NCBI GenBank assembly: GCA_964532425.1
Contig: CAZHIA010000001.1
Coordinates: 124,951-188,950 of the forward strand
DNA: 64,000 nt
From: an uncultured Candidatus Saccharibacteria bacterium
GTDB taxonomy: Bacteria; Patescibacteriota; Doudnabacteria; UBA920
Direction: 5' to 3'
Shown piece after piece: positions 1-24,475 of the stretch. Under the pieces are notes generated by a model, which was not told the DNA's origin, did not search any database, and saw only the letters and a program-made list of their open reading frames with translations. Positions within the stretch are counted from its first letter, which is position 1, and every line of letters starts with the position of its first letter. The position numbers were made by a program, and so were the translations under genes.

Positions 1-264
1 CACCGGCTGTACGGGTATAAGTAATTCAACGTAGCGTGCCGATTTATCGGCTTCCAATCCCATGAATGGGCACGCTACAATCTTATTGTTTCATTCCGGA
101 AGCCACGAGCCCAAAGGGCGAGGAACTGTCCGGAATCCATACACTCAAAAAGATTTGGACCTGAAAATCTCGGATCCAGCTCTTTGTTCCGGACCCAAAG
201 TCCGGGGCATGCAGTTTAAAAAAACCAGAGGAGGCAATTCAGTGATTGTTCGAAAGGAGGCTGT

Positions 265-1569
265 ATGGGCCTGGTAATTTCAAAAAAAGATCGGCCTATC
301 ATCAAGTCCCTTCTTGATACCGACTTCTATAAGGATACCATGGGAAAACTGATACAACGTCGGTTTCCCAAGGTTCCCGTGAAGTTCGCGTTCAAGAACC
401 GACACAAGCATGTCCGTCTAGCCGAATGCATAGACCAAGGCGAACTGCGCGAGCAGCTTGATCACTGCATGAAGCTTCGCTTCTGCCCTCAAGAAATCCA
501 TTATCTGCTGGGCACCTACGAATACAACCGGCCGATGTTCGGGCTGGACTACGGCAAGTTCATGCAGGACTTCCGACTGCCGGAATATCACCTGGAAACC
601 AGGGACGGGCAGCTACATTTGGAGTTTTTCGGTGAGTGGCAATATGTGACTCGCTGGGAGACTTTGGCGATGCAGATCGTTGCCGAGCTCTACGGACGGC
701 ATCAATTGCGTGGCTTGTCCCGGTTCGAGCGGGAAGTGGTATTTGCCGAAGGGCGGCGACGGTTGGCGAGGAAGATTAAAGTCCTTAAAGCCAATCCGAA
801 CATTGTATTCTCTGACTTTGGAACCCGCAGGCGGTTCAGTCGTAGGTGGCAGCAGTATGTGGTCTCGGTCCTTGCGCAGGAATTTCCCCGGCCGAGCGCG
901 TTCGTGGACCATCCACAGTTTCGCGGCACATCCAACACGTGGTTGGCCATGAAGTACGGGCTGACCCCCATGGGAACCAATGCCCACGAACTGCCCATGG
1001 TCTACTCCGCTATCTTCCGTAAGGAAGACAATGCGGCCCAGCGGCTCGTTTCCCAAATCAAGATGCTCGAAGACTGGGAAACGGAGTATGGCGAGGGTCT
1101 GTCGATCTTCCTGCCGGATACCTATGGCAGCGACTACTTCTTTAACAACATTCCGGTTGAAATGATTGCGCGCTGGAAAGGCTCGCGTCACGATTCCGGA
1201 CCGGCTATGGAATACGGCGACAAGCGAATCCCGATGTATCGCGACATGGGAGTCGATCCGGCCAAGAAGATTATCGTGTTTGCGGACGGACAGGATCCGT
1301 GGCAGGCTGACTCCATCGAGAAGTACTTCCGCGGTCGGATCATCCCGTCGTTCGGTATTGGTACCAACTTTACCAACGATTTGGGATTTACCTCGGAAGT
1401 TGATCTTAAAGCCCTGTCGATCGTTGTAAAAGTGATCGAAGCGTGTGGTCTCCCGGTGTGCAAGCTTTCCGATAATATCGAGAAGGCGATCGGCAACCCG
1501 GCAGAGATCGAGCGAATGAAACAGTTGGTTGGCTACGGCGTGACCTACGCCGAATCCTGCCGCTACTGA
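265..1569 (+). CDS. pncB: nicotinate phosphoribosyltransferase (NAPRTase)
   Basis: 434 aa. N-terminal LLDTDFYKDTM, DFGTRRRFS, GTSNTWLAMKYGLTPMGTNAHE, RHDSGP, SFGIGTNFTND and C-terminal KLSDNIEKAIG all match the PncB/NAPRTase family blocks in the same order as E. coli PncB. AAGGAGG RBS sits 5 nt upstream of the ATG. Confidence 0.85.
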   Translation: MGLVISKKDRPIIKSLLDTDFYKDTMGKLIQRRFPKVPVKFAFKNRHKHVRLAECIDQGELREQLDHCMKLRFCPQEIHYLLGTYEYNRPMFGLDYGKFMQDFRLPEYHLETRDGQLHLEFFGEWQYVTRWETLAMQIVAELYGRHQLRGLSRFEREVVFAEGRRRLARKIKVLKANPNIVFSDFGTRRRFSRRWQQYVVSVLAQEFPRPSAFVDHPQFRGTSNTWLAMKYGLTPMGTNAHELPMVYSAIFRKEDNAAQRLVSQIKMLEDWETEYGEGLSIFLPDTYGSDYFFNNIPVEMIARWKGSRHDSGPAMEYGDKRIPMYRDMGVDPAKKIIVFADGQDPWQADSIEKYFRGRIIPSFGIGTNFTNDLGFTSEVDLKALSIVVKVIEACGLPVCKLSDNIEKAIGNPAEIERMKQLVGYGVTYAESCRY

Positions 1570-1630
1570 CAATCACTGAAGTAAAAACCCGTGGTGGCTC
1601 GGCTTACCAGCCGCGCCACCACCCATTTCT

Positions 1631-1686
1631 GAAGCGCTCCATAATTATAGATTGGAGCGCTGCAGAGAGGGATATAAGGAGGATTA
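1631..1686 (+). promoter_or_regulatory. operator-like inverted repeat AGCGCTCCA-N11-TGGAGCGCT followed by GCAGAGAGGGA and RBS
   Basis: Perfect 9-bp inverted repeat at 1633-1641 / 1653-1661, directly upstream of the AAGGAGGA RBS of the 1687 gene. The same architecture recurs at 2211-2288. Confidence 0.5.
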
Positions 1687-2154
1687 ATGGTAGGAGTAAT
1701 TCTGATTTACCATAAGGGAGATCCGGAGATGAAGGGGTTAAGCCCTGATTGCAGGGTGTTGCAGTTCCCTGATGCTGATGAAGATAACCAGTATCAGGTG
1801 CCACAGCATATCCTGGAAGGGTCATGTGTTGTGGATTTTCAAGCCCAGGTCAAGGCATATATGTTGTGGAAGCATAACTTCCCAATGAGTGGGGACCGGC
1901 TGGTACATTTTGGGCCGAAAGCTACCACTCATTCAGAGCATGGTGTTGGCGTTGTGGTGTTTACATACCGCCTCACAGACGAAGAAGCTTCTCGTTTTGG
2001 TACTTTTGGTTCTGATGGTGCAAATGAGTCTGACCATCAGGTCGACACCTCAGCTCTCCCTCCGATGTTTTGCCGGATCAAGGCTGTGCTTGACGATCCG
2101 ATTACGACATTGGAGGCCCTTGGCGCAATCACGTATGGCCTGCTTCGATCTTAG
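1687..2154 (+). CDS. hypothetical small protein, member of a 5-paralog family in this block
   Basis: 155 aa. N-terminal beta-strand MVGVILIYHKG resembles the N-termini of the ORFs at 4107 and 4650 (GVVVIVYSPG / GSVVIIYVRGEP). Strong RBS. No catalytic motif recognised. Confidence 0.5.
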   Translation: MVGVILIYHKGDPEMKGLSPDCRVLQFPDADEDNQYQVPQHILEGSCVVDFQAQVKAYMLWKHNFPMSGDRLVHFGPKATTHSEHGVGVVVFTYRLTDEEASRFGTFGSDGANESDHQVDTSALPPMFCRIKAVLDDPITTLEALGAITYGLLRS

Positions 2155-2210
2155 GCCGGGCAAGCGGATCTGCATAAAACTAGCGGTCTCCCTTAGAGAG
2201 ACCGCCCCAT

Positions 2211-2288
2211 TCTCAAGCGCTCCACTCTGATGCTATCTAGTATCATAGTGTGCGGTGAAGCGCTGCAGAGAGGGAAAGAAGGAGGAAC
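2211..2288 (+). promoter_or_regulatory. second copy of operator-like inverted repeat (AGCGCTCCAC ... GTGAAGCGCT) + GCAGAGAGGGA + RBS
   Basis: Same motif order as 1631-1686, upstream of the 2289 gene. The spacer contains the extra palindrome CTATCTAGTATCATAG. Confidence 0.45.
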
Positions 2289-2639
2289 ATGACAGAAGTA
2301 GCCGTGGTAATCCACACTACCGCGTTTCATAAGAGCGGTGTGGAAGTTGTATTTGTACGCGAAAACGAGCGGGAAGTGTTGCCCGCATTCGCTACAGAGT
2401 CGGAGCAGCCGGAAGATCTCGTCCGTTTGGCGGTAGAAAGGATAAGAGAACTTACCGGTACGGAACTCGGAAGACAGTTCTTTTTGTCTCACCGATTGCC
2501 TCCGAACGCAAACTACAATCGGCGCACGGTGTTGTTTTTTGAAGGGCGCGTGCTGGATGCGGGAAGAGCACCGGTGGTCTACAAATCGGTGAGCGAAGTT
2601 CCCGCCGAAATCTGGCGGGCTATTGCCGAGATACGATAG
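2289..2639 (+). CDS. hypothetical small protein with degenerate Nudix-box-like segment
   Basis: 116 aa. VAVVIHTTAF...VVFVRENE beta-strands followed by LPAFATESEQPEDLVRLAVERIRELTG, which aligns to the Nudix box GX5EX7REUXEEXGU with several catalytic Glu replaced. Confidence 0.5.
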   Translation: MTEVAVVIHTTAFHKSGVEVVFVRENEREVLPAFATESEQPEDLVRLAVERIRELTGTELGRQFFLSHRLPPNANYNRRTVLFFEGRVLDAGRAPVVYKSVSEVPAEIWRAIAEIR

Positions 2640-2657
2640 ATCTTTCAGGAGGAAGCG

Positions 2658-3098
2658 ATGGAATTTTACGTGGTTGCCTTCCGGCGGCCTGAGCCCGGGG
2701 TCCAGCTTATTGATCCGGATACGGACATTCTGTTCGTGGCGATTGATGAAAGCAAATTCGAGTTGCCCTGCTACTCTGTGGGTGAACAGTTGGCCGATGA
2801 TGAGTTAAAAAGCGCTGCCGCCAAATATTTCGCCGAAAGTACCGGACTTGCCTTTGAACCGCATCGCTTTGAGTTCGTCTGGCGGCGGCTCAAAGAAAAC
2901 GACCGCGACATGATCGCCATTTGCTCGCTGGAACTGTCGGGTGGAGAAGGAACTGACGTTCAGCGCCTGATCGACGCGCCGGATTCCGCACGTGCATATT
3001 TTATCCCGTTTGCAAACTTTCTATATTTTGCGGGGTACGATATGCAGTCAGCGGGCATTATTACTACCGCCCTCGCGTATTTTCATACGCAGGGCTAA
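2658..3098 (+). CDS. hypothetical small protein with degenerate Nudix-box-like segment
   Basis: 146 aa. FYVVAFRRPEPG...ELPCYSVGEQLADDELKSAAAKYFAESTGL fits the Nudix fold topology and box spacing, but REUXEE is replaced by KYFAES. Confidence 0.5.
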   Translation: MEFYVVAFRRPEPGVQLIDPDTDILFVAIDESKFELPCYSVGEQLADDELKSAAAKYFAESTGLAFEPHRFEFVWRRLKENDRDMIAICSLELSGGEGTDVQRLIDAPDSARAYFIPFANFLYFAGYDMQSAGIITTALAYFHTQG

Positions 3099-3111
3099 TC
3101 CATGACAAACA

Positions 3112-3204
3112 GCGGCCTGGCGAAGTGCACCAGGCCCCCTTACCAGAATTCTTCATACTGCAATACTGCACCGTATTGCAGTATCGAGAATTGCGGTAAG
3201 GAGG
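3112..3204 (+). repeat. structured intercistronic element, copy A (GC hairpin - CCCCTTACCAGA - hairpin - GAGAATTGCGGTAAGGAG)
   Basis: Hairpin GGCCTGGCGAAGTGCACCAGGCC, then CCCCTTACCAGAATT, then hairpin ATACTGCAATAC/GTATTGCAGTAT, then GAGAATTGCGGTAAGGAG. Three further copies at 4505, 5037 and 6195. Confidence 0.7.
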
Positions 3205-3207
3205 GAA

Positions 3208-4064
3208 TGAAAATGACAGGAGGATTTCTAAGAGATTGGTTGTTGCATCTCATCTGGCACAACGAGATGCCGAGTGACTTGGTGCTCGTACGCCACGGCG
3301 AGAGCGAAGGCAACAAGACCAAAAACGAGCAGGAATGGTTTAACCACCCTGAGTTCGCCAAACGGCACAGTTCCGATTGGCGGCTGACCGACAAAGGCCG
3401 CTGGCAGCGGAACGAGGCTGGGTTGTGGATCCGCCAGAATATTCTACCGGTCATTCCCGGTAAGAAGTTCTACCGCCACTACACCTCCAACTATGTTCGC
3501 GCCATGGAAACAGCCGGCGGACTGGGGCTTAATGCCGAATGGTTTGTCCACTTCTTCCTGCGCGAGCGGGACTGGGGCTGGCTCGATGTGATGTCCAAGG
3601 AGCAGCGCCAAAAGTTGTTCCCACGGGAGTTGGAATGGATGAAAATAGGCGGGTTCCTGACCGCGCCGCCCAACGGCGAATCTTTGGCGGACTTGTGCAT
3701 CCGCGGGTATTTGATGAACAATACACTCGGTCGCGAGTGCGCCCGCAGGCCGGTCATAATGGTCAACCATGGCGAGTTCATGTGGGGCGAACGGGTACTG
3801 CTCGAACGGATCCCGCTCGACCGGTATCGGTTACTCGATGAATCGAAAGACCCCAAGGATCGTATCCATAATTGCCAGATTCTCTGGTACACTCGGCGCG
3901 ATCCGGTGTCCGGAAAGCTGGCTAAGTATTTCAAGTGGATGAAGTCGGTCTGTCCGTGGGACCTTTCGCTTTCTCATAACGAGTGGCGGGAAATTGAACG
4001 TCCGCGCTTCAGTGATGAAGAACTCTTAGCGCGGGCCGAAGCGATTCCACAGATCGTGAGTTAG
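3208..4064 (+). CDS. histidine phosphatase (phosphoglycerate-mutase-like) family protein
   Basis: LVLVRHGESEGN (codons 3291-3302) is the catalytic RHGE signature of the histidine phosphatase superfamily. Start moved to the ATG at 3208 (MKMTGG) just after the AAGGAGGG RBS. The listed ORF start at 3102 would read through the repeat element. Confidence 0.65.
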
Positions 4065-4106
4065 AGTCGCTATTCTGAAACGGGATAAAACTTGATCGGA
4101 GGTTGT

Positions 4107-4484
4107 ATGGAAGGTGTTGTTGTAATAGTCTATTCCCCCGGTAACACCCGGTATGGGCCAGGGCGAGATGCCGGTGAATGCGGAACGATGGTGTATTTGA
4201 ATCATCCTCCGGAACAGTTGTCTACCTTCGAAGCTGCATGCCTCGAAGAAGCGAGGGATCTCGCGGCGGAGATCGGCCGCACGTGCCTCCAGCGGGAATG
4301 CGGGATTCTCCCGTATACAGTCTATGATGCCACTATGTGGCTGTTCAGGATCGAGTTGGGTAACCAGGAGTTTGATCAGTTGCCTGACGAGGTCAAATGG
4401 AACTTTGTTTCGTTCAATCGCTTGCGAGCGATACCGGGCTTCGAGGCGGCATGGGATCATGTCCGTGCCGCGGTCGAAGACTAA
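4107..4484 (+). CDS. hypothetical small protein, paralog of the 4650 ORF
   Basis: Start set to the ATG at 4107 (MEGVVVIVYSPG), 7 nt after a GGAGG RBS. The ORF-track start at 4092 is TTG. TFEAACLEEARDLAAEIG parallels LFEAFSRQEAIERATQIG in the next paralog. Confidence 0.5.
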   Translation: MEGVVVIVYSPGNTRYGPGRDAGECGTMVYLNHPPEQLSTFEAACLEEARDLAAEIGRTCLQRECGILPYTVYDATMWLFRIELGNQEFDQLPDEVKWNFVSFNRLRAIPGFEAAWDHVRAAVED

Positions 4485-4504
4485 ACTCCAACCAATCGTA
4501 TACA

Positions 4505-4596
4505 AGCGGTGGCAACATGCTGCCACCGCCCCTTACCAGAATTGTTGATACTGCAGTACTGCACCGTACTGCAGTATGGAGAATTGCGGCAAGGAA
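4505..4596 (+). repeat. structured intercistronic element, copy B
   Basis: AAGCGGTGGCAACATGCTGCCACCGC hairpin, then CCCCTTACCAGAATT, then hairpin ATACTGCAGTAC/GTACTGCAGTAT (G:C where copy A has A:T at the same stem position), then GAGAATTGCGGCAAGGA. Confidence 0.7.
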
Positions 4597-4649
4597 AAGA
4601 GGTTTCTGCTTAATCATTTTTCCTTAAAGATGTTAGCGAAGGAGGATTT

Positions 4650-5018
4650 ATGATAGGGAGTGTAGTGATCATTTATGTGCGGGGGGAACCCCACCATTGT
4701 CGCCTCGGGTATGATGAGGTGGCAGGGGTCCTGCTGAACGGTCCTGAATGTCCAGTGGACCTGTTTGAAGCCTTTTCCCGGCAGGAAGCGATAGAGCGCG
4801 CGACCCAAATCGGCCGGCAGCGCCTCGGCGTTGAACCGCCAAGGCCGTATCTGATGGCTGATATGGAACGGTGGGCGTTCCGGATCGTTCTCGGGGACAG
4901 AGAGTTTAGCGCAATAGGCGAGGATGTACAGAGACAATTCGTCTCATATGACCATCCGCCTCAATGGCTGAGGACCAGCATCTGTTCAAAGCTGGTGCAA
5001 GAGGCCAGCGAAATGTAA
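4650..5018 (+). CDS. hypothetical small protein, paralog family
   Basis: 122 aa. AGGAGGA RBS. N-terminal MIGSVVIIYVRGEP. Similar to the 4107 ORF. Confidence 0.5.
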   Translation: MIGSVVIIYVRGEPHHCRLGYDEVAGVLLNGPECPVDLFEAFSRQEAIERATQIGRQRLGVEPPRPYLMADMERWAFRIVLGDREFSAIGEDVQRQFVSYDHPPQWLRTSICSKLVQEASEM

Positions 5019-5036
5019 CACTCACAACGAAGCGGT

Positions 5037-5127
5037 GGCAGCATGCTGTCACCGCCCCTTACCAGAGTTTTCCACTCTATTACACTCCCGTAATAGAGTA
5101 TGGAAAATTGCGGCAAGGAGAAATCCT
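5037..5127 (+). repeat. structured intercistronic element, copy C
   Basis: GAAGCGGTGGCAGCATGCTGTCACCGC, then CCCCTTACCAGAGTT, then a hairpin of entirely different sequence (CTCTATTAC / GTAATAGAG), then GGAAAATTGCGGCAAGGAG. Hairpin structure is kept while its sequence is replaced. Confidence 0.7.
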
Positions 5128-5173
5128 TGAAGAGTTTACAGAAGCTTGAAAATTTCCAAACAGGAGGAATAAG

Positions 5174-6154
5174 ATGTCGACAGATATCCTACCCGTACTG
5201 AACGGGAACGGCAAGCAGGCGATTGCTCACGGGAGTGGCCAGATGCGCGCCCAGAGCATTTCCATTCAGGTTTCCTCGCGCGTCCGCTGTAACGCGGGCT
5301 GCAAGTTTTGCATTTCGCGAACCACGCCGGACTGCGCAGAGGGTAGCGGGAAGGACCTTACATGGTGTGATCTTGAACGGCTGAGAGTGGGGCTGAATTA
5401 TGCCAGCCACATTGGGGCAACTCACGCGATACTGACCGGCCGTGCCGATCCGACACAAGAGACTTCGGAGTACCTGTGTGAGCTCGTCAAAGCGGCCCGG
5501 GAGCACGTGCCCTTTGTTGATATGCATACGAATGGATTTTTGCTTCTGCCGGGAAGTTCGAAAGCTGGCATGCTTGACGACCTGGCGGCTGCCGGGCTGA
5601 CCCATCTCACGCTTTCCATCGCTGCTATTGACCGGGCGAAGAATCGCGAGCTGATGCTGGTCCGGGATAGCGGGCTCTCTCTCATTCGCTATGCGGTAAA
5701 ACTCGGTTTACTCGTCCGCGCTTCGCTGGTTGTTAACAAAAGCGGGGTATGCGACGTGCCCAGCCTGATCGAATATATCTGGCAAGCCGGCGAATACGGG
5801 GCACATATGGTTGTGGTCCGCGAAGTCTGGGTTCCCGAAGTATACAGCCAGATCAACGAGGAAGTATATGCCTGGAACCGGGAAAACTACGTGGACATTA
5901 AGCCCCTGCAGGATGAATTCATGCGGCTGGCCGAGCAGCGCCGGCATGGCCTGCGACGGCTGAATGATCTACCCTGGGGGACACCGGTGTTTGCCATGGA
6001 GGGGATATTCGAGAGTGATCCCTCTCACGGAGTGAATGTAACGTTTGCCCGGTGTGACGAGGCCAATGTCGGGTCGGTCATGAAATCGATCGTCCACCGG
6101 CCGAACGGCCATGGCTATCGCAACTGGGACAGCATGGGCGACATCTTGTATTAA
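5174..6154 (+). CDS. radical SAM enzyme, subfamily unresolved
   Basis: 326 aa. CNAGCKFC gives the CX3CX2C cluster (Cys codons 5288, 5300, 5309). Downstream LTGRADPTQ (GGEP-like) and HTNGFLL (TNGxLL) fit the radical-SAM core. No SPASM or extra Cys cluster at the C-terminus. GGAGGA RBS. Confidence 0.75.
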   Translation: MSTDILPVLNGNGKQAIAHGSGQMRAQSISIQVSSRVRCNAGCKFCISRTTPDCAEGSGKDLTWCDLERLRVGLNYASHIGATHAILTGRADPTQETSEYLCELVKAAREHVPFVDMHTNGFLLLPGSSKAGMLDDLAAAGLTHLTLSIAAIDRAKNRELMLVRDSGLSLIRYAVKLGLLVRASLVVNKSGVCDVPSLIEYIWQAGEYGAHMVVVREVWVPEVYSQINEEVYAWNRENYVDIKPLQDEFMRLAEQRRHGLRRLNDLPWGTPVFAMEGIFESDPSHGVNVTFARCDEANVGSVMKSIVHRPNGHGYRNWDSMGDILY

Positions 6155-6194
6155 GATCTGTGTGGTAACTTGGCTCTGCCAAGTTATCCAATCA

Positions 6195-6395
6195 AGCGGT
6201 GGCAGCATGCTGCCACCGCCCCTTACCAGAGTTTTCAGTGAGTATGTCATTGCGAGTCAAAGAAATTTTTAGTAATAAATTTCTTCGACGAAGCAATCTT
6301 TCCTGTAACGGTACAAGATTGCCGCGGCCTCATATTGAATTCTAAAAATATGAAGCCTCGCAATGACGACGACATTGAAAATTGCGGTAAGGGAT
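6195..6395 (+). repeat. structured intercistronic element, copy D, with a ~120-bp nested insertion
   Basis: AAGCGGTGGCAGCATGCTGCCACCGC, then CCCCTTACCAGAGTTTTCAG, then [6246-6366 insert], then GACGACATTGAAAATTGCGGTAAGGGA. The short hairpin seen in copies A-C is replaced by a 121-bp structured insert. Confidence 0.65.
6246..6366. repeat. MITE-like structured element X (GTCATTGCGAG ... CTCGCAATGAC termini), second copy at 13569..13684
   Basis: 11-bp terminal inverted repeats GTCATTGCGAG/CTCGCAATGAC, an inner inverted repeat AAGCAATCT/AGATTGC, and internal AAAGAAATTT...AAATTTCTTT hairpins. The same termini and inner blocks occur at 13569-13684. Confidence 0.6.
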
Positions 6396-6453
6396 GATGC
6401 AGTAGGGAAGTAATCATTCCAGGCAGTTTAAAAATACGACAGGGGGAAATTAT

Positions 6454-7395
6454 ATGAGCATTATTCTGTTTGCTGCGCGCCAGGCGCAGAAAATGGCGCA
6501 GGAAATTATCGATATCGGCAGAGGATCTATTGTTCCTGGTACCATCAAATGGGACCGGTACGATGGCGTTTGGGCTAATACGGTCATCGAGAACGCCGAA
6601 TCTTTGCGTAACCGAGATGTGGCTTTCTTAGCCGCATACGAGACCATGGCAGATATTATCGAACAACAGTGGGCACTGAATACGCTCACGCGTCGGTACA
6701 AGGTTCGGTCCATGAAAATGTTGTTGCTCGATTACCCGACTGGCACCAAGGATCGCTGGGAAGAAGAGGGAGAAGTGGTAACGGCGTTCGAGCTGGCTGA
6801 CGGTATGGGCACTATTGCCCAGACGAAGTCTGGCCCGATCGATCTCGGCATATTTGACCTGCATGCACTGCAGGAGGAGAGCTACTTTCCTAAGAACTTC
6901 CGGCCGCCAGACCGCTTGAGCGCCATGCCGCTTTTGTGCGACATGATCGGCGGGTATGACGATATCAGTATTGTCTTTCCCGACGAGGGCGCATACAAGC
7001 GGTACGCTAAGCGCAACTTCAAGGGCTTCGACCAGGTTGTGTGCGAAAAGCGCCGCATCGGAAAAGATCGAATCGTCACCATAAAGGAAGGTGACCCGAA
7101 AGGTCGCCATTGCTACATAGTCGACGACCGTATTATTTCCGGGGTTACCGCCGTGAAGTGCAAGGATGCGTTATTCAGTGCGGGTGCTGCCGCGGTCAGC
7201 TTGTATGTGGGGCATGGCGCTTTCACGACCAACGCGCCGCAAAAGTTCATCGACTCGGGATTTTCGGAAGTCTGGTTTTCGGACTCGTGCCCGGCGATGG
7301 CGGAAAAACTTCGGGGTGTCGGGCAATTCAAGATCATGCCACTCGCCCACGAAGCTGCCAACTGGATTTTGGAAGATACTCGCCAGGCCGCCTAA
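6454..7395 (+). CDS. ribose-phosphate pyrophosphokinase (PRPP synthetase) family protein, divergent
   Basis: 313 aa. DLHALQEESYFP matches the Prs DLHAxQIQGFF block. IVFPDEGAYKR matches VVSPDIGG. YIVDDRIISGVT corresponds to the PRPP-binding loop VDDMIDTGGT, with TGGT replaced by SGVT. Length is typical for Prs. Confidence 0.65.
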   Translation: MSIILFAARQAQKMAQEIIDIGRGSIVPGTIKWDRYDGVWANTVIENAESLRNRDVAFLAAYETMADIIEQQWALNTLTRRYKVRSMKMLLLDYPTGTKDRWEEEGEVVTAFELADGMGTIAQTKSGPIDLGIFDLHALQEESYFPKNFRPPDRLSAMPLLCDMIGGYDDISIVFPDEGAYKRYAKRNFKGFDQVVCEKRRIGKDRIVTIKEGDPKGRHCYIVDDRIISGVTAVKCKDALFSAGAAAVSLYVGHGAFTTNAPQKFIDSGFSEVWFSDSCPAMAEKLRGVGQFKIMPLAHEAANWILEDTRQAA

Positions 7396-7422
7396 AAGCG
7401 CCGGAGAAACAGGAGAAAAATC

Positions 7423-9366
7423 ATGCCTGATTATGGATACATTCGCGTTGCGGCAGTGAGCCCGAAGGTGCACGTCAGCGATCCATATAAGAATATGGAA
7501 GAAATGCTTGCGTGGATCGGGCGGATCAGCAAGGAGAACGTACAGCTTGCGATATTTCCCGAGCTCGGGATGACCGGCTACACATGCAAGGACTTGTTCT
7601 TGCAAACGTGGCTGCAACAGGAGTCGCGAAAAGCCCTGGAGACGCTGGTGGCTGAAACTCGCGACTTGGACATGGTCATTCTGGTTGGTGCTCCGCTGAA
7701 GATCGACGACCAGCTATTCAACGTTGCGGTCGCCATTCAAGACGGACAGGTACTCGGGGTCGTCCCAAAGACGCATCTCCCCGGTTATAAGGAGTTTGAA
7801 GAACGCCGCTGGTTCGCGCCGGCGGCCCGCTTAAAGAGCAAAACCGTGCTTCTTGGCGGCAAGCGGGTTCCGGTCGGAACCAATTTGGTATTTGAGTCGG
7901 CGCAGGTCGAGGATTTCAAGTTCGCGATCGAGATCTGTGAAGATCTGTGGATGCCCATCCCGCCCAGCTCCCACCATTGCCTGCACGGCGCGACGGTGTT
8001 GTGCAATCTTTCGGCTTCAAACGAAGTCGTAGGAAAAGCCAGTTACCGCCGTAAGCTGGTGGAAAGCCAGTCGGCACGCTGTGTTGCGGGATATGTGTAC
8101 AGTTCCTGCGGCGATGGCGAATCAACCTCGGATGTCGTGTTTTCCGGGCACTGCATAGTTGCCGAGAATGGGAACATCATCATGGAGTCGGAGCGCTTCA
8201 AGCGCGGTGGCGACATGGTGATAACCGATCTCGATGTGGAGCGGCTCGTCCGCGAACGCATAATGACTGATAGCTTCGGAGATGCGATCGCGGCGGAAAC
8301 CGCGGAATACATCCACATCCCGTTTGATACCGTCAGACTCGATGTGGAAACGGATTTCCGCAGGACCATCAACCCGGACGTGTTCATTCCTTCTGATCCG
8401 CGTTTGCGCGATGAAGTGTGCCAAGAAGTTTTCAACATCGCGACAATGGGTCTGGGCCATCGGCTTGAAGAAGTGTTCGGCGGCAAGGATCCTAAAGTAA
8501 ACGTGGGTGAGTCGGGTGGTCTTGACTCGTTGCTTTCATTGTTCATTATCGACGAGACCTACGACCGCTGGGGATGGGACAAGAGCGGTATTAACGCTGT
8601 GACAATGCCCGGACCTGGAACGTCCGCCCGCACTCTGGGAAACGCCAAGGGGATTTGTGAAGCCTTGGGCATCGGCCTCAAGATTATCGACATCACCGAG
8701 GATGTGACCCGGCATCTCGAACACATCGGACATTCGCCTGCTTGCATGGACTGCCTGCAGTGCGAAAATGCCCAAGCCCGCGAACGGACCCAGATCTTGA
8801 TGGATTTGGGCTTTACCGTGGGTACGGGAGACCTGTCCGAGGGGTTCATTGGCTGGATGACGTATAACGGCGACCATATGAGCAACTACAACCCCAACTG
8901 CAGTATTCCGAAAACGTTGGTGAAGTATGTTGTTCTGTGGAAGGCTGACCAGTATGAAAAAGCCGGTAACCTTGCTGCGGCACAGAGAGCCCGGGATATC
9001 GCGGCGACGCCAATCTCCCCCGAACTGCGTAAGTTGGGAGAGGGGGGAGTCATCGCGCAAAAATCCGAAGAAGAAAATGGTCCGTATCGGGCTGTTGAAT
9101 TTTTCGGATCGAGCATGCTCCGCTACGGCATTCCGCCCGAAAAGATTTTCTTTTTGGCGCGGCAGGCCTTCAAGAACGACTACAACCGGGACGGGCTGTT
9201 GGCCTGGCTGAAAAAGTACATCTGGAAGTTCTTCCGCAACCAGTTCAAGCGTGATGCGGCGCCGGATGGGGCCAAGGTTGGTACGGTAGCCTTGTCGCAG
9301 CGCGGTGATCTGCGGCTGGCCTCGGATGTCAATCCGAAGCCTTGGGTAGATTCGCTTCCGGACTGA
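7423..9366 (+). CDS. nadE: glutamine-dependent NAD(+) synthetase
   Basis: 647 aa. N-terminal CN-hydrolase/nitrilase domain (IRVAAVSPKVHVSDPYKN...FPELGMTGYTCKDLF). C-terminal NAD-synthase domain with the ESGGLDS P-loop (codons 8509-8529). Confidence 0.9.
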   Translation: MPDYGYIRVAAVSPKVHVSDPYKNMEEMLAWIGRISKENVQLAIFPELGMTGYTCKDLFLQTWLQQESRKALETLVAETRDLDMVILVGAPLKIDDQLFNVAVAIQDGQVLGVVPKTHLPGYKEFEERRWFAPAARLKSKTVLLGGKRVPVGTNLVFESAQVEDFKFAIEICEDLWMPIPPSSHHCLHGATVLCNLSASNEVVGKASYRRKLVESQSARCVAGYVYSSCGDGESTSDVVFSGHCIVAENGNIIMESERFKRGGDMVITDLDVERLVRERIMTDSFGDAIAAETAEYIHIPFDTVRLDVETDFRRTINPDVFIPSDPRLRDEVCQEVFNIATMGLGHRLEEVFGGKDPKVNVGESGGLDSLLSLFIIDETYDRWGWDKSGINAVTMPGPGTSARTLGNAKGICEALGIGLKIIDITEDVTRHLEHIGHSPACMDCLQCENAQARERTQILMDLGFTVGTGDLSEGFIGWMTYNGDHMSNYNPNCSIPKTLVKYVVLWKADQYEKAGNLAAAQRARDIAATPISPELRKLGEGGVIAQKSEEENGPYRAVEFFGSSMLRYGIPPEKIFFLARQAFKNDYNRDGLLAWLKKYIWKFFRNQFKRDAAPDGAKVGTVALSQRGDLRLASDVNPKPWVDSLPD

Positions 9367-9406
9367 GAGAAACATTGAGAAAGGGGGATACGTAGGAGTA
9401 ACATCG

Positions 9407-9448
9407 ACCGCTCCGGTCGCCAGAAATGGCGGCTGGGGCGGTTTTTTT
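9407..9448 (+). terminator. rho-independent terminator after nadE
   Basis: GC-rich imperfect hairpin CCGCTCCGGTCGCC...GGCGGCTGGGGCGG followed by TTTTTTT (9442-9448). Confidence 0.5.
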
Positions 9449-9508
9449 ATGGCGGATAAAGGATTTAAGATTTAGGATTAAGGTTTTAGGTAGGGGGCTG
9501 TTTATCTG

Positions 9509-9537
9509 GTAGGGAACGGTGTCAAACCGTTCCCTAC
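9509..9537. repeat. conserved hairpin GTAGGGAACGGT-N4-ACCGTTCCCTAC, preceded by CTGG, copy 1
   Basis: Perfect 12-bp stem. A near-identical element, CTGGTAGGGAACGGTTTAAAACCGTCCCCTGCA, occurs at 15231-15263. Confidence 0.55.
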
Positions 9538-9564
9538 ATGGGGAGCAGAAGACAAAAAATTTTT

Positions 9565-9593
9565 TGACAACCCACTATCCTTTTTTTATACTA
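9565..9593 (+). promoter_or_regulatory. sigma70-type promoter (TTGACA-17-TATACT)
   Basis: Consensus -35 TTGACA (9565-9570), 17-bp spacer, -10 TATACT (9588-9593), about 30 bp upstream of the 9622 ORF. Confidence 0.55.
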
Positions 9594-9621
9594 CACCAAC
9601 CATCATTAATCAGGAGGAGTT

Positions 9622-11777: not shown

Positions 11778-13526
11778 TTAATTCCCAAACCCTCCCGCCT
11801 GGATCTCCCAGAGGTGGTGGTAAAAACCTTCCGTACTGACGAGCTCTTCGTGCCGGCCTTCTTCCACGACTTGTCCGTCTTGCAGGACCAGGATGCGGTC
11901 CATTTCCATGATTGTCGACAGGCGGTGGGCAATGACGATGACTGTCTTGTCATGCATGAGCTCGCGCAGCGCGTCTTGAATATGCCGTTCACTTTCGCTG
12001 TCCAAGGCCGAAGTGGCTTCGTCGAGCACGAGTATGGGAGCATTTTTAAGGAAGGCTCGGGCAATGGCAATGCGCTGGCGCTCTCCGCCAGAAAGCTTAA
12101 GGCCACGTTCGCCGACTAAAGAGTCGTAGGCATCAGGCAATTGTTTGATGAATTCGTGGCAGCGGGCGCGCTTAGCGGCTTCGACCGCCTCCTCGACCGA
12201 GGCTTCCGGTTTGGCATAGCGGATATTCTCCAGAATCGAGCGGTGGAAGAGTATGGGATCTTGCGGAACCAGGGCAATCTGCTGCCGGAGCGTTTCCTGG
12301 GTCACACCGGTAATGTCCTGTCCGTCAACATGGATGCTGCCGGAAGTCGGATCATAGAATCGGAACAGGAGTTTGATAATGGTGGATTTGCCGCCGCCGG
12401 AACTTCCCACAAACGCGACCTTTTCGCCGGGATGAATGTCCAGCGTAAAATTCTCAAAAACCCTTTTCCCATCAGGGTAGGCAAAAGCAACCCGGTCAAA
12501 GCTGATGGCGCCGTTGGTAATATTGATCGGTTGTGCATCTAGACTGTCTTCAATCTCATGCGGGGTGAGCAGTACTTCAGTCATCTCATTGGCATCGGCC
12601 AAACCGGAGAACAGGTCGCGGACATAACGGGACAGGCTCCAGAGCCGGGAAAAAACCTGGCCGAGGTATGACTGGATCAGTACGAAGTCGCCGATGGAAA
12701 AATTGCCCTTTTGCCAGCGGCCGACAGCCAAATAAAGGATCAAGGCTTCCATGCCCAGCATGAGCAAAGCCTGGACTGCGTCAGAACTTTCGGACAGCGA
12801 CCAGCTTTTCCAGCGGGCTTTAACCAACTGATCGGTCAGTCGGCTAAACACCCCGACCTCGGTTTTAATGCCGGAGAAAAGCTTGAGGTTGACGTTATTG
12901 GTGACCGTATCGGAAATGTGCGAAGCAATTTCGGTATCTGCCTTGGACTGCCGCAGGTCGTACTTGAGTTTGTAGCGCGAGAAAGAAATGGTAGTGACTG
13001 AGTACAGTGCGGTCCAGCCGAGCATAATAAGAGCAAAGGTCAGGTTTTCGCGCGAAAGAATGAGGATAATGAGCAGCAAGCGGAGCGCAGTCTGGCCGAT
13101 GTTCCAAAAGACCTGGCTCGTGACATTCTCAAAGGCACTGACGAAGCGATGCATTTTGCGCACCAGGCTGCCGGCAAAATTGTTGTTGAAGTAGTTATAC
13201 GAGTGTTGCTGCAGGTAGACATAGCAGGTTTGCAGCAGAGCGGCCATGCTCACATTCTGGAAATAGCTGCCGGAAAATGCGGCGAGGCGCCAGAAGAACC
13301 ACGCGACGGCATTCAGAGCGACATAGAGGACAAGCCAATGAAAAATGCCGGCGGTGTTGTTGGGGGAACCGCTTAAGATGTTAAAAAAGTTTTTGTAGAT
13401 GAGCGGGTTGTAGACTTCTACCGCCGCTGCGCCGGCAATACCAATGGTAAAGCCGGAAAGGGACCAAGGGTGCTGTTTCGCGTGCTGCCAAAAGATGAGC
13501 AACGTGTGTTTCGTGACGTTCTGCAC
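11778..13526 (-). CDS. ABC transporter, fused permease/ATP-binding protein (MsbA-like type I exporter)
   Basis: 582 aa. N-terminal 6-TM domain, Walker A GSSGGGKST, ABC signature LSGGERQRIAIARAF, Walker B ILVLDEATSALD. Confidence 0.9.
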   Translation of the reverse strand: MQNVTKHTLLIFWQHAKQHPWSLSGFTIGIAGAAAVEVYNPLIYKNFFNILSGSPNNTAGIFHWLVLYVALNAVAWFFWRLAAFSGSYFQNVSMAALLQTCYVYLQQHSYNYFNNNFAGSLVRKMHRFVSAFENVTSQVFWNIGQTALRLLLIILILSRENLTFALIMLGWTALYSVTTISFSRYKLKYDLRQSKADTEIASHISDTVTNNVNLKLFSGIKTEVGVFSRLTDQLVKARWKSWSLSESSDAVQALLMLGMEALILYLAVGRWQKGNFSIGDFVLIQSYLGQVFSRLWSLSRYVRDLFSGLADANEMTEVLLTPHEIEDSLDAQPINITNGAISFDRVAFAYPDGKRVFENFTLDIHPGEKVAFVGSSGGGKSTIIKLLFRFYDPTSGSIHVDGQDITGVTQETLRQQIALVPQDPILFHRSILENIRYAKPEASVEEAVEAAKRARCHEFIKQLPDAYDSLVGERGLKLSGGERQRIAIARAFLKNAPILVLDEATSALDSESERHIQDALRELMHDKTVIVIAHRLSTIMEMDRILVLQDGQVVEEGRHEELVSTEGFYHHLWEIQAGGFGN

Positions 13527-21947: not shown

Positions 21948-23750
21948 GTGACGAGAAAACAAAGAGGTTTCACCATCGTTGAGGTACTGGTCAGCGTGGC
22001 TATTTTTGCCATTTTACTGACCGGTATTTTAGGCGCGTATGCCGCCTTGTCGAAGACAGTAAAAGCGGCGCGCGAGAAAACTGTCCTGTCGTCCCTGGCC
22101 TCGTACTATGTCGAGACTATCCGCAATATGCCGTATAGCCAGGTAGGAACTGCAAGCGGCAACCCGCACGGCAATCTGCCCGATTACACCAATGCGATCA
22201 CTCAGAAGATCGAAGCTTTTACCTATAAAATTTATTACGAGGTTACGTACATCGACGACCCTTCCGACGGGACGATTCTTGCCGGGACTGATCCGGCCCC
22301 TGATGACTATAAGCAGGTCAAGATGGATATTTTAAACGTGGCAACAGGGCAGGTGACGTCATTTGTGACCAATGTGGTGCCGAAAGGGTTGGAGGGAACT
22401 ATCAATGCCGGTGCCTTGCTGATCAAGGTCATGAATGCGTCGGGTCAACCGGTAACTGATGCGACCATTCACATTCAATCGGTCGGCCTGACTCCGAGCG
22501 TTGTTTTAGACCGCGAGTCGGACAGTAACGGTCAATGGGCGGAAGTCGGTTTGCCGGTTGGGGTCAATGCGTACCATATTGTCGTAACCAAACCTGGGTA
22601 TTCTTCTGACCAGACGTATCCCATTACCGTGCAAAATCCCAATCCGACCAAACCCGATGCTACCATTGCGAACGGTCAGGTGACGCAGATTAGCTTCGCT
22701 ATTGATTACCTGTCGAACCTGAATATCAAGACTTTAGACAGCTTGTGCCAGCCCGTTTCCGGCGTGAATTTGAATGTACTCGGCGCGAAGTTGATTGGCA
22801 CGAGCCCGAAAGTCTATAAATTTAACCAGAACTTCACCTCGAATGCCGGACTGGTCGCACTGAACAATATTGAATGGGATACGTATACGCCGACCTTACT
22901 CACCGGACAGTCGTGGGTGGTTCGTGGGACCTCTCCTATTCAAAAGATTGATGTTTTGCCTGGCACCACCCAGACTTTTACCATGATCCTCGGCTCGAAT
23001 ACCACGGCCAACAGCCTCCTGGTGATTGTGAAAGACAAGACGACCGGAGTGGCACTCGAAGGAGCGAATGTCCACTTGCAGAAAGGCGGTAGCGTACCGC
23101 AGGATTACTACGCCATTACCGGCGGTAGCGTCTGGATTCAAAGCGATTGGAGCGGCGGCAGCGGAACCCAAATGTGGTCAGCTACCAGCAGCAAGGATCA
23201 TTACTATCAGGACGACGGGAATGTTGATTCCAACAGCTCGCCGACCGGGCTGCGCCTGAAAAAGACCTCGGGCAAGTATGCGCCTGCCGGATGGGCCGAG
23301 TCATCCACGTTCGACACCGGGACGAATGCGACTAATTTCACGACTATCTCATGGCAGCCGACATCGCAGGATCCGAACACAGAATTAAAATTCCAGATCG
23401 CGGCTAACACGGACAATGCGACCTGGAACTATGTCGGGCCCGATGGCACTGCCGGGTCATACTATGCGGTATCAGGGAGCAACATTAGCAGCACGCTGGA
23501 CAATAATCGGTATGTCCGCTACAAAGTCTACCTTTCTACAGCGCAGAATAATAAGACCCCAGTGTTGACCTCGGTCAATCTCAATTTTGTGACCGGCTGT
23601 TTTACTCCCGGACAGGTGTTTTTCCCGGACCTGACTGCTGGCAATAATTATTCTCTCGATGTTACCCTTGACGGCTATGCGACGAAAACGATCAATTCAG
23701 TCAATATCAACGGTAATCAACCGTTGGAAATATTGCTGACGCCGCAATAA
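21948..23750 (+). CDS. type IV pilin-like protein (prepilin N-terminal methylation domain) with large C-terminal domain
   Basis: 600 aa. GTG start. N-terminus MTRKQRGFTIVEVLVSVAIFAILLTGILGA is a class III signal with G|FTxxE cleavage/methylation motif. The remainder is rich in beta-type Thr/Ser/Asn repeats. Confidence 0.8.
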   Translation: MTRKQRGFTIVEVLVSVAIFAILLTGILGAYAALSKTVKAAREKTVLSSLASYYVETIRNMPYSQVGTASGNPHGNLPDYTNAITQKIEAFTYKIYYEVTYIDDPSDGTILAGTDPAPDDYKQVKMDILNVATGQVTSFVTNVVPKGLEGTINAGALLIKVMNASGQPVTDATIHIQSVGLTPSVVLDRESDSNGQWAEVGLPVGVNAYHIVVTKPGYSSDQTYPITVQNPNPTKPDATIANGQVTQISFAIDYLSNLNIKTLDSLCQPVSGVNLNVLGAKLIGTSPKVYKFNQNFTSNAGLVALNNIEWDTYTPTLLTGQSWVVRGTSPIQKIDVLPGTTQTFTMILGSNTTANSLLVIVKDKTTGVALEGANVHLQKGGSVPQDYYAITGGSVWIQSDWSGGSGTQMWSATSSKDHYYQDDGNVDSNSSPTGLRLKKTSGKYAPAGWAESSTFDTGTNATNFTTISWQPTSQDPNTELKFQIAANTDNATWNYVGPDGTAGSYYAVSGSNISSTLDNNRYVRYKVYLSTAQNNKTPVLTSVNLNFVTGCFTPGQVFFPDLTAGNNYSLDVTLDGYATKTINSVNINGNQPLEILLTPQ

Positions 23751-23783
23751 GGGCGGCGACATTTGACATGTAACATGTGACAT

Positions 23784-24473: not shown

Positions 24474-24475
24474 CG

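Follow-up and report, generated by a model that had tools for sequence, protein, structure and literature searches.

The NrtR family comprises Nudix-related regulators whose regulons contain pncA, pncB, nadD, nadE, prs and Nudix genes. Among RNA elements, the phage T7-type hairpins processed by RNase III and the hairpins sequestering Shine-Dalgarno (SD) sequences lie between cistrons. Phage NAD+ reconstitution by NARP1 combines Adps, a PRPS-like ADP-ribose pyrophosphokinase, with Namat, a PRTase-like ligase (bioRxiv 10.1101/2024.02.11.579819; PMC13586617). Here we analyse an operon located on a 64,000-nucleotide stretch of DNA (the window), which comes from a Patescibacteria (Uhrbacteria-like) chromosome. 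The operon is of a known type, but some of its conserved members are undescribed and others of its genes are lineage-specific insertions. We favour, with moderate confidence, the interpretation that a conserved Patescibacterial operon for Preiss-Handler NAD salvage and ADP-ribose recycling has been elaborated in a lineage-specific manner.

Gene content of the operon

Seven co-directional genes on the forward strand fill the interval between pncB and a Prs-like gene followed by nadE, and the ORF coordinates agree in this with the original prediction. The genes and the signals at the operon end are as follows (positions in the window):

265-1569, forward strand: pncB, nicotinate phosphoribosyltransferase, upstream of the block (Pfam NAPRTase, 1.8e-41)
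1687-2154, forward strand: A155, orphan small protein (SD present, best coding frame, singleton cluster)
2289-2639, forward strand: B116, orphan small protein with the string ERIRELTG (singleton, without family match)
2658-3098, forward strand: C146, orphan small protein with the string KYFAES (self-hit only)
3207-4064, forward strand: histidine phosphatase (His_Phos_1, branch 1; Pfam His_Phos_1, 6.4e-19)
4107-4484, forward strand: D125, orphan small protein, paralog of E122 (BLASTP)
4650-5018, forward strand: E122, orphan small protein, paralog of D125 (BLASTP)
5174-6154, forward strand: radical SAM enzyme; family uncharacterised and restricted to Patescibacteria (one [4Fe-4S] motif, C39-x3-C43-x2-C46)
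6454-7395, forward strand: Prs-like, divergent ribose-phosphate diphosphokinase homolog (profile matches)
7423-9366, forward strand: NadE, glutamine-dependent NAD synthetase at the operon end (NF002730, score 713.8 vs cutoff 473)
9406-9443, forward strand: intrinsic terminator at the operon end (17-bp stem, T-run directly after)
9564-9592: promoter-like site (match at 11 of 12 positions), 3' of the terminator

The pncB product passed two NCBIfam cutoffs (NF003704, score 397 vs 379; TIGR01514, score 306 vs 269). The Prs-like protein stayed under that of its family (TIGR01251, score 86.9 vs 113), with matches to phrog_619 (6.9e-21) and to PRPP synthetases in the PDB (5e-12). The genes from pncB to nadE lie in one transcription unit with a transcript of roughly 9 kb, ending at the terminator at 9406-9443. 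This was by far the strongest forward-strand candidate within positions 1-9600 and the only one there to combine a long stem with an immediate T-run.

Two gene starts were corrected. The start of D125 was moved from TTG 4092 to ATG 4107, in line with gene calls. For the phosphatase, the ORF start at 3102 gave way to ATG 3207 or 3213, which a strong SD precedes; the first 105 nt of the ORF read from 3102 are one of the repeat elements.

Conservation in related loci

Synteny was assessed by tblastn of the window proteins on 24 genome loci with a homolog of the radical SAM enzyme. All 24 loci fetched had NAD genes at a distance of at most 10 kb from this homolog, namely NrtR, pncA, nadD/nadK, Nudix, pncB, Prs, ADP-ribosylglycohydrolase or nadE, and further contigs showed a consistent NAD-gene context. 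The gene pncB was found upstream of the radical SAM homolog in 16 of the 24 loci (a 17th carried another type of NAPRTase), and nadE downstream of it in 15. Most loci also carry NrtR, PncA, NadD/NadK and a Nudix protein of roughly 190 aa, and the layout outside the window reads NrtR, PncA, NadD/NadK, Nudix, PncB, (histidine phosphatase), radical SAM, (ADP-ribosylglycohydrolase or Prs), NadE. In three loci (L022, L023 and L028) NrtR and the radical SAM gene are divergently transcribed. It should be added that the NrtR gene is located outside the window, and the copy of the operon studied here may be regulated by NrtR.

The histidine phosphatase gene was immediately upstream of the radical SAM gene in 9 of 24 loci, and in two of them (L008 and L021) the two genes share a 4-nt overlap. 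The phosphatase and the radical SAM enzyme are thus regular members of the Patescibacterial NrtR-associated NAD salvage supercluster, and in several lineages their genes are tightly paired. This conserved context supports and sharpens the broad initial reading of the block as an NAD- or ADP-ribose-related module outside described pathways. Within the block, conservation of the gene neighbourhood covers these two enzymes only: none of the 28 related loci with DNA contained the five small ORFs, which are therefore not ingredients of the conserved module. Three of them (A155, B116 and C146) are situated between pncB and the phosphatase gene; the other two, D125 and E122, separate the phosphatase gene from the radical SAM gene. 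All five are lineage-specific insertions at operon junctions.

The histidine phosphatase and the radical SAM enzyme

Both enzymes had been recognised correctly from the sequence. In the phosphatase, the Pfam match is accompanied by catalytic residues (RHG, second Arg, ER pair and distal His) that are invariant among 8 homologs, and the homologs in related loci show 31-51% identity in tblastn. Its scores were far below the NCBIfam equivalog cutoffs for both CobC and dPGM.

The radical SAM enzyme, the notable part of the block, scored 32.9 bits in Pfam against a gathering cutoff of 29.5. Identity within its family was 46-65%, and C39, C43 and C46 were invariant in 29 homologs. These homologs showed no conserved cysteines beyond CX3CX2C; the enzyme therefore has no auxiliary cluster. 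The AF2 model was confident (pLDDT 89.9). The fold is of the MoaA/viperin/BlsE type, and the enzyme has one Fe-S cluster only. None of the curated families fitted the protein. It is not a member of the viperin family, with zero matches to PADLOC pVip and a profile-to-PDB E-value of 4e-3 for viperin vs 1e-5 for MoaA. Our literature search found no link between a radical SAM enzyme and NAD salvage, including NrtR and radical SAM together.

Five orphan small ORFs

The small ORFs encode proteins of 155 (A155), 116 (B116), 146 (C146), 125 (D125) and 122 (E122) aa, and billion-sequence searches returned no homologs for any of the five. C146 matched only itself among 5.8 billion proteins, a D125/E122 profile recovered only these two from 1.84 billion representatives, and A155 had no match in Pfam, PHROG, NCBIfam or PADLOC. 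Such orphan status, together with a pLDDT of 31.8 in single-sequence AF2, would suit the view that some or all of them are non-functional spacers or decaying remnants, open by chance. The GC3 of the small ORFs is lower than that of core genes, with A155 atypical (0.49 vs 0.65-0.70 in core genes), and the frame score of B116 is ambiguous, one reverse-strand frame being slightly higher. Against this, all five ORFs are preceded by an SD at canonical spacing, the annotated frame is clearly the best of six in the other four, and the five uninterrupted ORFs occupy nearly all of the gaps between conserved genes. They also show no similarity to the genes holding the same slots elsewhere, and the divergence between D125 and E122 (below) speaks for constraint. 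We therefore consider chance or decaying reading frames to be quite unlikely. All seven genes of the block, the small ORFs included, are real genes, and the SDs, codon statistics and one paralog pair suggest that the small ORFs are expressed as proteins. Our best guess is that they are small proteins with a ligand-binding or accessory role, expressed together with NAD salvage.

The five had been predicted to be paralogs, which could be demonstrated only for D125 and E122 (38% identity over 103 aa, E 4e-14 in BLASTP, 4e-12 in phmmer); A155, B116 and C146 showed no significant similarity to one another or to this pair in BLASTP and hhalign. Codon differences between D125 and E122 amount to 0.48, 0.43 and 0.63 per position, and 22 of the 45 residues shared by the two are encoded by different codons. 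Identity of 38% with an excess of third-position change and synonymous differences indicates selection on the protein. The pair arose by tandem duplication of an ORF-plus-element unit of about 530 bp, followed by protein-level constraint. From the N-terminal VVVIxYxxG strand ascribed to all five, an aliphatic run in residues 2-10 stands in 4 of 5 (vs about 1% of 245 context ORFs), and common paralogy does not.

The strings KYFAES and ERIRELTG, interpreted originally as Nudix boxes with replaced Glu residues, are present, but the similarity to Nudix proteins was not significant. No significant Nudix signal was obtained for the five small ORFs in Pfam, NCBIfam, PHROGs, hhalign or the shuffle test: Pfam NUDIX matched 0 of 5 at E<=1, and hhalign probabilities stayed below 4%, none surviving multiple-test correction. 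For B116, Nudix profiles were not significant in either hhalign or the shuffle test. In two independent profiles, hhalign aligned residues 44-73 of C146 with the Nudix box (P 0.012 in one, 0.36 in the other). Against the NrtR-Nudix HMM, 6 of 500 shuffles scored as high as C146, a result without significance once 15 tests are allowed for. These alignments give the weakest of hints at a Nudix-box-like helix in C146, and C146 and B116 are possibly Nudix-derived.

These results bear on the proposal that five catalytically dead, paralogous Nudix-fold nucleotide binders act with a viperin-like radical SAM enzyme and the phosphatase in a modified-nucleotide pathway resembling ddh-nucleotide synthesis. 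D125 and E122 are the sole paralogs, similarity to Nudix proteins lacks significance, related loci conserve the two enzyme genes without the small ORFs, and MoaA, GDGT-MAS and SkfB match the radical SAM enzyme as well as or better than viperin, with no pVip match in PADLOC. Such a pathway is hence unlikely, and the elaborated NAD salvage operon remains our preferred interpretation.

Two-hairpin intercistronic elements

Repeated structured elements between the cistrons, noted at the outset, were confirmed as six copies with low fold z-scores (-3.4 to -8.3). All six lie within 5 kb, with none in the other 59 kb of the window:

1590-1671, forward strand: element T2a (fold -53.4 kcal/mol, z -6.7; CM R1 E 0.03)
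2183-2274, forward strand: element T2b (fold z -3.4; CM R1 E 0.008)
3114-3201, forward strand: element T1a (fold -51 kcal/mol, z -6.8; CM R1 104.8 bits)
4506-4594, forward strand: element T1b (fold z -6.1; CM R1 115.8 bits)
5032-5118, forward strand: element T1c, upstream of the radical SAM gene (fold and CM R1)
6196-6393, forward strand: element T1d, with an insertion of about 110 nt in the tip of hairpin 2

In hairpin 2, a 7-bp base and a 2x2 internal loop are conserved, the tip is variable in length (about 30 to 140 nt), and the 3' strand GGYAAGGAG is or mimics an SD. T2a consists of a GC-rich hairpin 1 and a hairpin 2, the 3' strand of which extends into the SD of A155; it has AGCGCTCC...GCGCTGCAGAGAGGGA in common with T2b. 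In T1a, the 3' strand GGTAAGGAGG provides the SD for the phosphatase gene, with which the base of hairpin 2 overlaps. The T1d region (6186-6460) folds at -104 kcal/mol (z -8.0), CCUUACC pairing with GGUAAGG across 170 nt. None of the six elements scored as a forward-strand terminator.

The elements had no Rfam match and form a new sequence family. The search beyond the window recovered only three related elements, with E-values of 3e-4 to 4e-3 under a rough calibration. An ortholog of T1c is present at the equivalent position upstream of the radical SAM gene in one relative (L026, positions 40-117); CCTTACC...GGCAAGGAGAAATCCTTGA is common to both, and hairpin 1 differs in sequence with its pairing kept. 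In L026, elements of like architecture flank the radical SAM gene, and in L019 one lies after pncB; the stems differ in sequence from those in the window and still pair.

The alternation of ORF and element, with D125 plus T1b and E122 plus T1c as tandem repeats of about 530 bp, may recall cassette-like mobile units with foldable sites similar to integron attC, accumulated by site-specific recombination. Elements about 85% identical beside ORFs only 38% identical, the conserved paired base, internal loop and variable tip of hairpin 2, and the low GC3 of the small ORFs would all fit. However, the elements also flank the core phosphatase, radical SAM and Prs-like genes, as well as the radical SAM gene in L026; a GTTRRRY-type core site is not visible, and the subset of window ORFs scanned contained no integrase. 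The 3' strand coincides with the SD, which points to a role at the RNA level, and the sole match in JGI metagenomes is a chance one. Recombination cassettes are thus very unlikely, and we retain the interpretation of an elaborated salvage operon with RNA-level elements.

Proposed mechanism

On the basis of gene context, the 5'-deoxyadenosyl radical of the radical SAM enzyme could act by hydrogen abstraction on the ribose in a ribonucleotide or ribose phosphate of the NAD pathway, candidate substrates being NaMN, NaAD/NAD, ADP-ribose and PRPP/R5P. The histidine phosphatase would remove a phosphate before or after this step. Together they may form an auxiliary branch feeding or repairing the pool of pyridine nucleotides or ribose phosphates. 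The canonical PncA, PncB, NadD, NadE and NadK steps are already covered by other genes, and the additional step could therefore be regulatory or protective rather than biosynthetic. Since the 3' strand of hairpin 2 is or mimics an SD, the elements probably gate ribosome access and also serve as processing or stability sites inside the transcript, as their structure suggests. This would permit segment-specific expression levels along the operon.

Comparison with known systems

Among characterised radical SAM enzymes, MoaA (GTP 3',8-cyclase), which acts on a nucleotide ribose, is similar in the cluster motif CN..C.[FY]C and was both the best PDB profile match and the top Foldseek match (TM 0.63). 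Unlike MoaA, the enzyme reaches only 31-36 bits with NCBIfam MoaA models (cutoffs 284-325), lacks the second conserved cysteine set for an auxiliary cluster, and has NAD genes rather than Moco genes as neighbours. From viperin and pVips it differs in the weak profile match, in matching no PADLOC defence model and in its context, a housekeeping NAD operon and not a defence island.

With NARP1 the locus shares the pairing of a PRTase-family gene with a divergent Prs-like gene, below the Prs cutoff, in an NAD-rebuilding context. In contrast to NARP1, pncB passes NAPRTase equivalog cutoffs, nadE is present as in ordinary Preiss-Handler salvage, and the Prs-like protein is only about 26% identical to its phage counterparts. 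The elements resemble T7-type and SD-sequestering hairpins in that they recur at cistron junctions along a single long transcript, have a conserved internal loop and carry the SD on the 3' strand. They differ from these hairpins in the extra GC-rich upstream hairpin of each element and in their new sequence family.

The gene set is that of NrtR operons: the window has pncB, Prs-like and nadE, and the homologous loci have NrtR, pncA, nadD/nadK and Nudix, with NrtR divergent to or upstream of the cluster. Unlike the NrtR operons described, those considered here include a radical SAM enzyme, in many cases together with a histidine phosphatase. Five orphan genes and six structured elements between the cistrons come on top of this in the window.

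Operon organisation and host

The seven-gene block is framed by pncB on one side and by a Prs-like gene and nadE on the other, and the ORF listing and the gene calls on the identical public contig concurred on the following order (the number in the name of a small ORF is its length in amino acids):

265-1569, + strand: pncB, passing the NCBIfam equivalog/subfamily cutoff
1687-2154, + strand: A155, orphan small ORF
2289-2639, + strand: B116, orphan small ORF
2658-3098, + strand: C146, orphan small ORF
3207/3213-4064, + strand: histidine phosphatase, His_Phos_1
4107-4484, + strand: D125, orphan small ORF, paralog of E122
4650-5018, + strand: E122, orphan small ORF, paralog of D125
5174-6154, + strand: radical SAM enzyme, C39-x3-C43-x2-C46
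6454-7395, + strand: Prs-like gene, below the NCBIfam cutoff
7423-9366, + strand: nadE, passing the NCBIfam equivalog/subfamily cutoff

The start of D125 needs correction, to 4107. By far the strongest intrinsic terminator candidate of the + strand within positions 1-9600 was located at 9406-9443, directly 3' of nadE, and was followed by a near-consensus promoter; the ten genes therefore make up a single transcription unit, which begins with pncB at the latest. With pncB, the Prs-like gene and nadE present in the window, and NrtR adjoining the cluster in homologous loci, the operon belongs to the NrtR-type NAD salvage operons; the NrtR gene for this copy would be expected upstream of the window. 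The operon is preceded by a strongly structured non-coding pncB leader of ~245 nt (20-264, + strand), the several long hairpins of which fold at -89.4 kcal/mol (z -4.5) and which has no Rfam match. This leader could serve the operon as a regulatory or operator region.

Homologs of the radical SAM enzyme originate from Uhrbacteria, Falkowbacteria, Komeilibacteria, Buchananbacteria and other Parcubacteria, and the window, as judged by its sequence, is a piece of Patescibacteria chromosome. A phage origin, suspected at first, was dismissed, the radical SAM enzyme having no phage match in tblastn and pilins, an ABC transporter and DsbA being present in the window. The remaining window genes encode type IV pilin-like proteins, the ABC transporter, DsbA, a LysM protein and an ORF of 8734 aa. 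The pilin-like gene cluster (21948-25951, + strand) comprises a 600-aa protein with the N-terminal methylation motif and CarboxypepD_reg domains and a 490-aa PilX_N protein; it is followed at its 3' side by an ATP-grasp-like gene and the LysM protein of 1444 aa. In the 8734-aa single ORF (36406-62610, + strand), Pfam revealed only Peptidase_S74, the endosialidase intramolecular chaperone, near residue 7940, the first 4400 aa being free of matches; the product resembles a giant Patescibacterium protein of the surface or fibre type.

Radical SAM enzyme and phosphatase in NAD operons of relatives

Alignment of 29 radical SAM homologs provided 24 loci from species-representative genomes for synteny analysis. 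NAD genes were found within 10 kb of the radical SAM gene in all 24 of them, and additional metagenomic contigs concurred with this context. The gene had pncB upstream in 16 loci (and another NAPRTase type in a 17th) and nadE downstream in 15, while the phosphatase gene was immediately 5' of it in nine, with the two genes overlapping by 4 nt in loci L008 and L021. The second pass added NrtR (NUDIX + NrtR_WHD), PncA, a NadD-NadK fusion and a Nudix protein of the A5 set, ~190 aa and ADP-ribose-pyrophosphatase-like, in most loci; other genes filling these slots coded for ADP-ribosylglycohydrolase, IU nucleoside hydrolase, a deoxyribosyltransferase-Nudix fusion, an NAD-kinase-like protein and canonical Prs. 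In three loci (L022, L023 and L028) the radical SAM gene was divergent from NrtR, with pncB and nadE elsewhere. A separate conserved set lies between NrtR and the NAD genes in three related contigs (L027 624-5285, L029 1071-5732 and L028 2068-6868) and consists of a PP2C phosphatase, a protein of 623-639 aa that weakly matches protein kinases and two proteins lacking Pfam matches.

The predicted NAD/ADP-ribose module with undescribed members has held up in outline and not in its details: the phosphatase and the radical SAM enzyme are kept in related NAD operons, the five small ORFs are absent there, and neither five Nudix paralogs nor a viperin-like pathway could be upheld.

Identity of the radical SAM enzyme

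As predicted, the enzyme belongs to the radical SAM superfamily: it matches the Radical_SAM profile, its CX3CX2C motif (C39-x3-C43-x2-C46) is invariant and its fold is a partial TIM barrel. The AF2 model was confident (pLDDT 89.9, pTM 0.87), and Foldseek ranked MoaA (TM 0.63), SkfB, viperin (TM <=0.67 on target) and BlsE as its relatives, in this order. The profile of 29 sequences, searched against PDB, gave MoaA at 1e-5 and viperin at 4e-3. Identity with MoaA was rejected on the NCBIfam equivalog scores, which amount to about a tenth of the cutoffs (TIGR02666, 31.1 vs 284; TIGR02668, 36.4 vs 325), and because the homolog alignment has no second conserved cysteine set for an auxiliary [4Fe-4S] cluster, one further cysteine, C294, being nearly invariant. 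The viperin-like pathway of the original prediction likewise found no support: PADLOC defence/pVip models gave no match at E<=0.1, so the enzyme is not a pVip, the PDB match to viperin stayed at 4e-3 and the genomic context is that of NAD genes in all 24 genome loci.

Histidine phosphatase

The histidine phosphatase, predicted from its RHGE motif, proved to be a sound member of superfamily branch 1 (PF00300, 6.4e-19, 68.8 bits vs cutoff 21.7) with an intact catalytic set, R27, H28, G29, R96, E118, R119 and H186 being invariant in eight homologs. Neither CobC alpha-ribazole phosphatase (TIGR03162, 27.2 vs cutoff 162.9) nor dPGM (NF002339, 31.7 vs cutoff 316) came into consideration. The 320-aa ORF starting at 3102 opens within a repeat element; its true start codon is the ATG at 3207 or 3213, behind GGTAAGGAGG. 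An N-terminal extension of ~18-20 aa (3207-3266) is absent in homologs, which begin with MTMPxDL; it apparently arose when the intercistronic element T1a supplied a new Shine-Dalgarno (SD) sequence and start codon.

Five small orphan ORFs

All five small ORFs are preceded by a Shine-Dalgarno sequence, and the annotated frame is the best of six in four of them. The exception is B116, the frame of which is ambiguous because one reverse-strand frame scores marginally higher (0.066 vs 0.011). With GC3 values of 0.49-0.61 they fall below the core genes (0.65-0.70). An aliphatic strand right after the initiator Met occurs in four of the five vs ~1% of 245 context ORFs, a background probably underestimated, since the starts of the context ORFs were called mechanically.

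The five proteins had been taken for one paralogous family, of which only the pair D125/E122 remains (38% identity, E 4e-14 in BLASTP and 4e-12 in phmmer); all other pairs gave BLASTP E>0.3, and the D/E profile, compared by hhalign with A155, B116 and C146, yielded P of 0.05-0.4, none significant. Differences between D125 and E122 per codon position are 0.48, 0.43 and 0.63, and different codons are used for 22 of the 45 identical residues, a pattern that looks like protein-level selection after duplication.

Each small ORF is a singleton at 90% identity among ~15 billion proteins; C146 matches only itself among 5.8 billion proteins, and the D/E profile, run with HMMER over 1.84 billion representatives in full, only D and E. 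None of the five was detectable in any of 28 related loci, and no similarity was seen to the genes occupying these slots elsewhere (NDT-Nudix, NAD-kinase-like, IU nucleoside hydrolase), of which they might have been remnants. Since pncB, the phosphatase and the radical SAM gene are elsewhere adjacent or one annotated NAD-related gene apart, the small ORFs are insertions into a conserved operon.

The five proteins had also been predicted to be Nudix-like, two of them with altered Nudix boxes, which the profile searches did not substantiate. Pfam NUDIX (PF00293 or related) matched none of them at E<=1, nor did any Pfam, PHROG, NCBIfam or PADLOC family. The Nudix box consensus is GX5EX7REUXEEXGU; in the strings read from B116 (AVERIRELTG) and C146 (AAKYFAESTG) the REUXEE core is lost and one Glu is kept in each, which is compatible with a degenerate, non-catalytic Nudix box and not diagnostic of it. 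Two Nudix profiles were built from homologous operons, one of the NrtR set (A4) and one of the A5 set. In hhalign, residues 44-73 of C146 fell on the Nudix box of both (P 0.012 and 0.36, probabilities <4%), and A155, B116, D125 and E122 aligned with neither (probabilities <4%). The best result of the shuffle test (15-sequence HMMs, 500 shuffles, 15 tests), C146 vs NrtR-Nudix, was matched by 6 of 500 shuffles, which over 15 tests falls short of significance. For the alpha/beta/alpha sandwich of the Nudix fold, the five proteins were concatenated and modelled with AF2 from the single sequence, there being no homologs to align; the model had a mean pLDDT of 31.8 and no residue >50. Nudix identity may serve as a lead for C146, perhaps for B116, and finds no support for A155, D125 and E122.

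Two-hairpin intercistronic elements

Six elements sit after pncB, A155, C146, D125, E122 and the radical SAM gene, each consisting of a GC-rich hairpin 1 directly 3' of the stop codon and, after it, a long hairpin 2. The four T1 copies have the sequence CCCTTACCAGARTT...GARAATTGCGGYAAGG in common, which is confined to the block within the 64 kb (chance expectation <=0.06); the two T2 copies are alike in architecture and unlike T1 in sequence. All six fold far better than shuffles (z -3.4 to -8.3). Between copies, hairpin 1 varies in sequence in its stems and hairpin 2 in its tip, with pairing retained, and T1d keeps the base pairing despite an insertion of ~110 nt in the tip. The T1 elements are ~85% identical vs 38% for the adjacent D/E proteins and so are either under much stronger constraint or being homogenised.

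A covariance model trained on three copies matched both sides of the radical SAM gene in locus L026, the enzyme of which is 65% identical (E 3e-4 and 4e-3), and the region 3' of pncB in L019 (E 4e-3); these elements fold like those of the window. Moreover, 20 bases 3' of hairpin 2, GGCAAGGAGAAATCCTTGAA, are identical in the window and L026, next to an enzyme only 65% identical. Neither an element family nor an NAD riboswitch was found in Rfam, at gathering thresholds or at E<=10, and a metagenome scan with the T1 pattern returned one match, to an unrelated GC-rich sequence without upstream hairpin, judged to be chance.

Hairpin 1 is not an intrinsic terminator, as no T-run follows it and none was scored on the + strand. 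The palindromic tips of hairpin 2 were considered as a shared protein operator, which is refuted by sequences that differ among copies while pairing persists. The phosphatase gene has the 3' strand of hairpin 2 as its SD; in other T1 copies this strand is SD-like and able to pair with a downstream segment, e.g. CAAGGAGAAAUCCUUG, giving two mutually exclusive structures. Segments of such alternative pairing are:

5103-5140, window
4579-4640, window
6377-6430, window
100-125, L026

The alternative pairing 3' of T1 hairpin 2 looks like a switch, and we infer that the elements may be sites of mRNA processing or stability which also gate translation.

Proposed function

Several of the nearest structural relatives of the radical SAM enzyme remove a hydrogen from the sugar of a nucleotide or nucleoside, and by this analogy the enzyme may act on the ribose of an NAD-pathway metabolite. 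Since the other genes of the supercluster cover all canonical Preiss-Handler steps, the radical SAM enzyme and the phosphatase would constitute an auxiliary branch. One possible step is an O2-independent change to the ribose of NaMN, NaAD or ADP-ribose. Alternatively, the pair could supply a pyridine or ribose-phosphate precursor by a different route. The reading as a whole is tentative, and we would sooner doubt than assert it: the pair would perform an undescribed, Patescibacteria-characteristic radical step of NAD/ADP-ribose metabolism, in an operon here also colonised by orphan, possibly Nudix-derived binding proteins, the expression of which would be set by a new class of two-hairpin intercistronic RNA switch.

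The NAD salvage pathway counts as completely mapped, and we know of no radical SAM enzyme participating in it; full-text searches brought up no paper that ties a radical SAM enzyme to NrtR, to Preiss-Handler salvage or to the NAD metabolism of Patescibacteria. The main value of these data lies in how strictly an uncharacterised radical SAM enzyme, often accompanied by a histidine phosphatase, is associated with NAD salvage operons across Patescibacteria. Often located beside the regulator NrtR and often coupled in translation to the phosphatase, this enzyme gives a concrete lead, open to testing, to a reaction missing so far in organisms host-dependent for cofactors, and two proteins with a few candidate substrates suffice as a starting point for the search. 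The orphan genes and the RNA elements form a lineage-specific layer on top of the NAD salvage operon and show how a core operon of a reduced genome gains genes and internal RNA control points.

Comparison with NARP1

Prs-like proteins come in two kinds in the NAD operons of these bacteria: one is canonical and has Pribosyltran_N, the other is divergent and, as found in the window, scores below the family cutoff (86.9 bits vs NCBIfam cutoff 113). The genes compared were:

6454-7395, window
12335-13246, L008
11046-12002, L011

In NARP1 (Adps/Namat), Adps is a Prs-like enzyme specific for ADP-ribose, and the divergent Prs-like protein of the window might conceivably be an ADP-ribose pyrophosphokinase of the phage Adps kind. 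The phosphoribosyltransferase of NARP1 uses ADPR-PP; the pncB product of the window instead passes the NAPRTase cutoffs.
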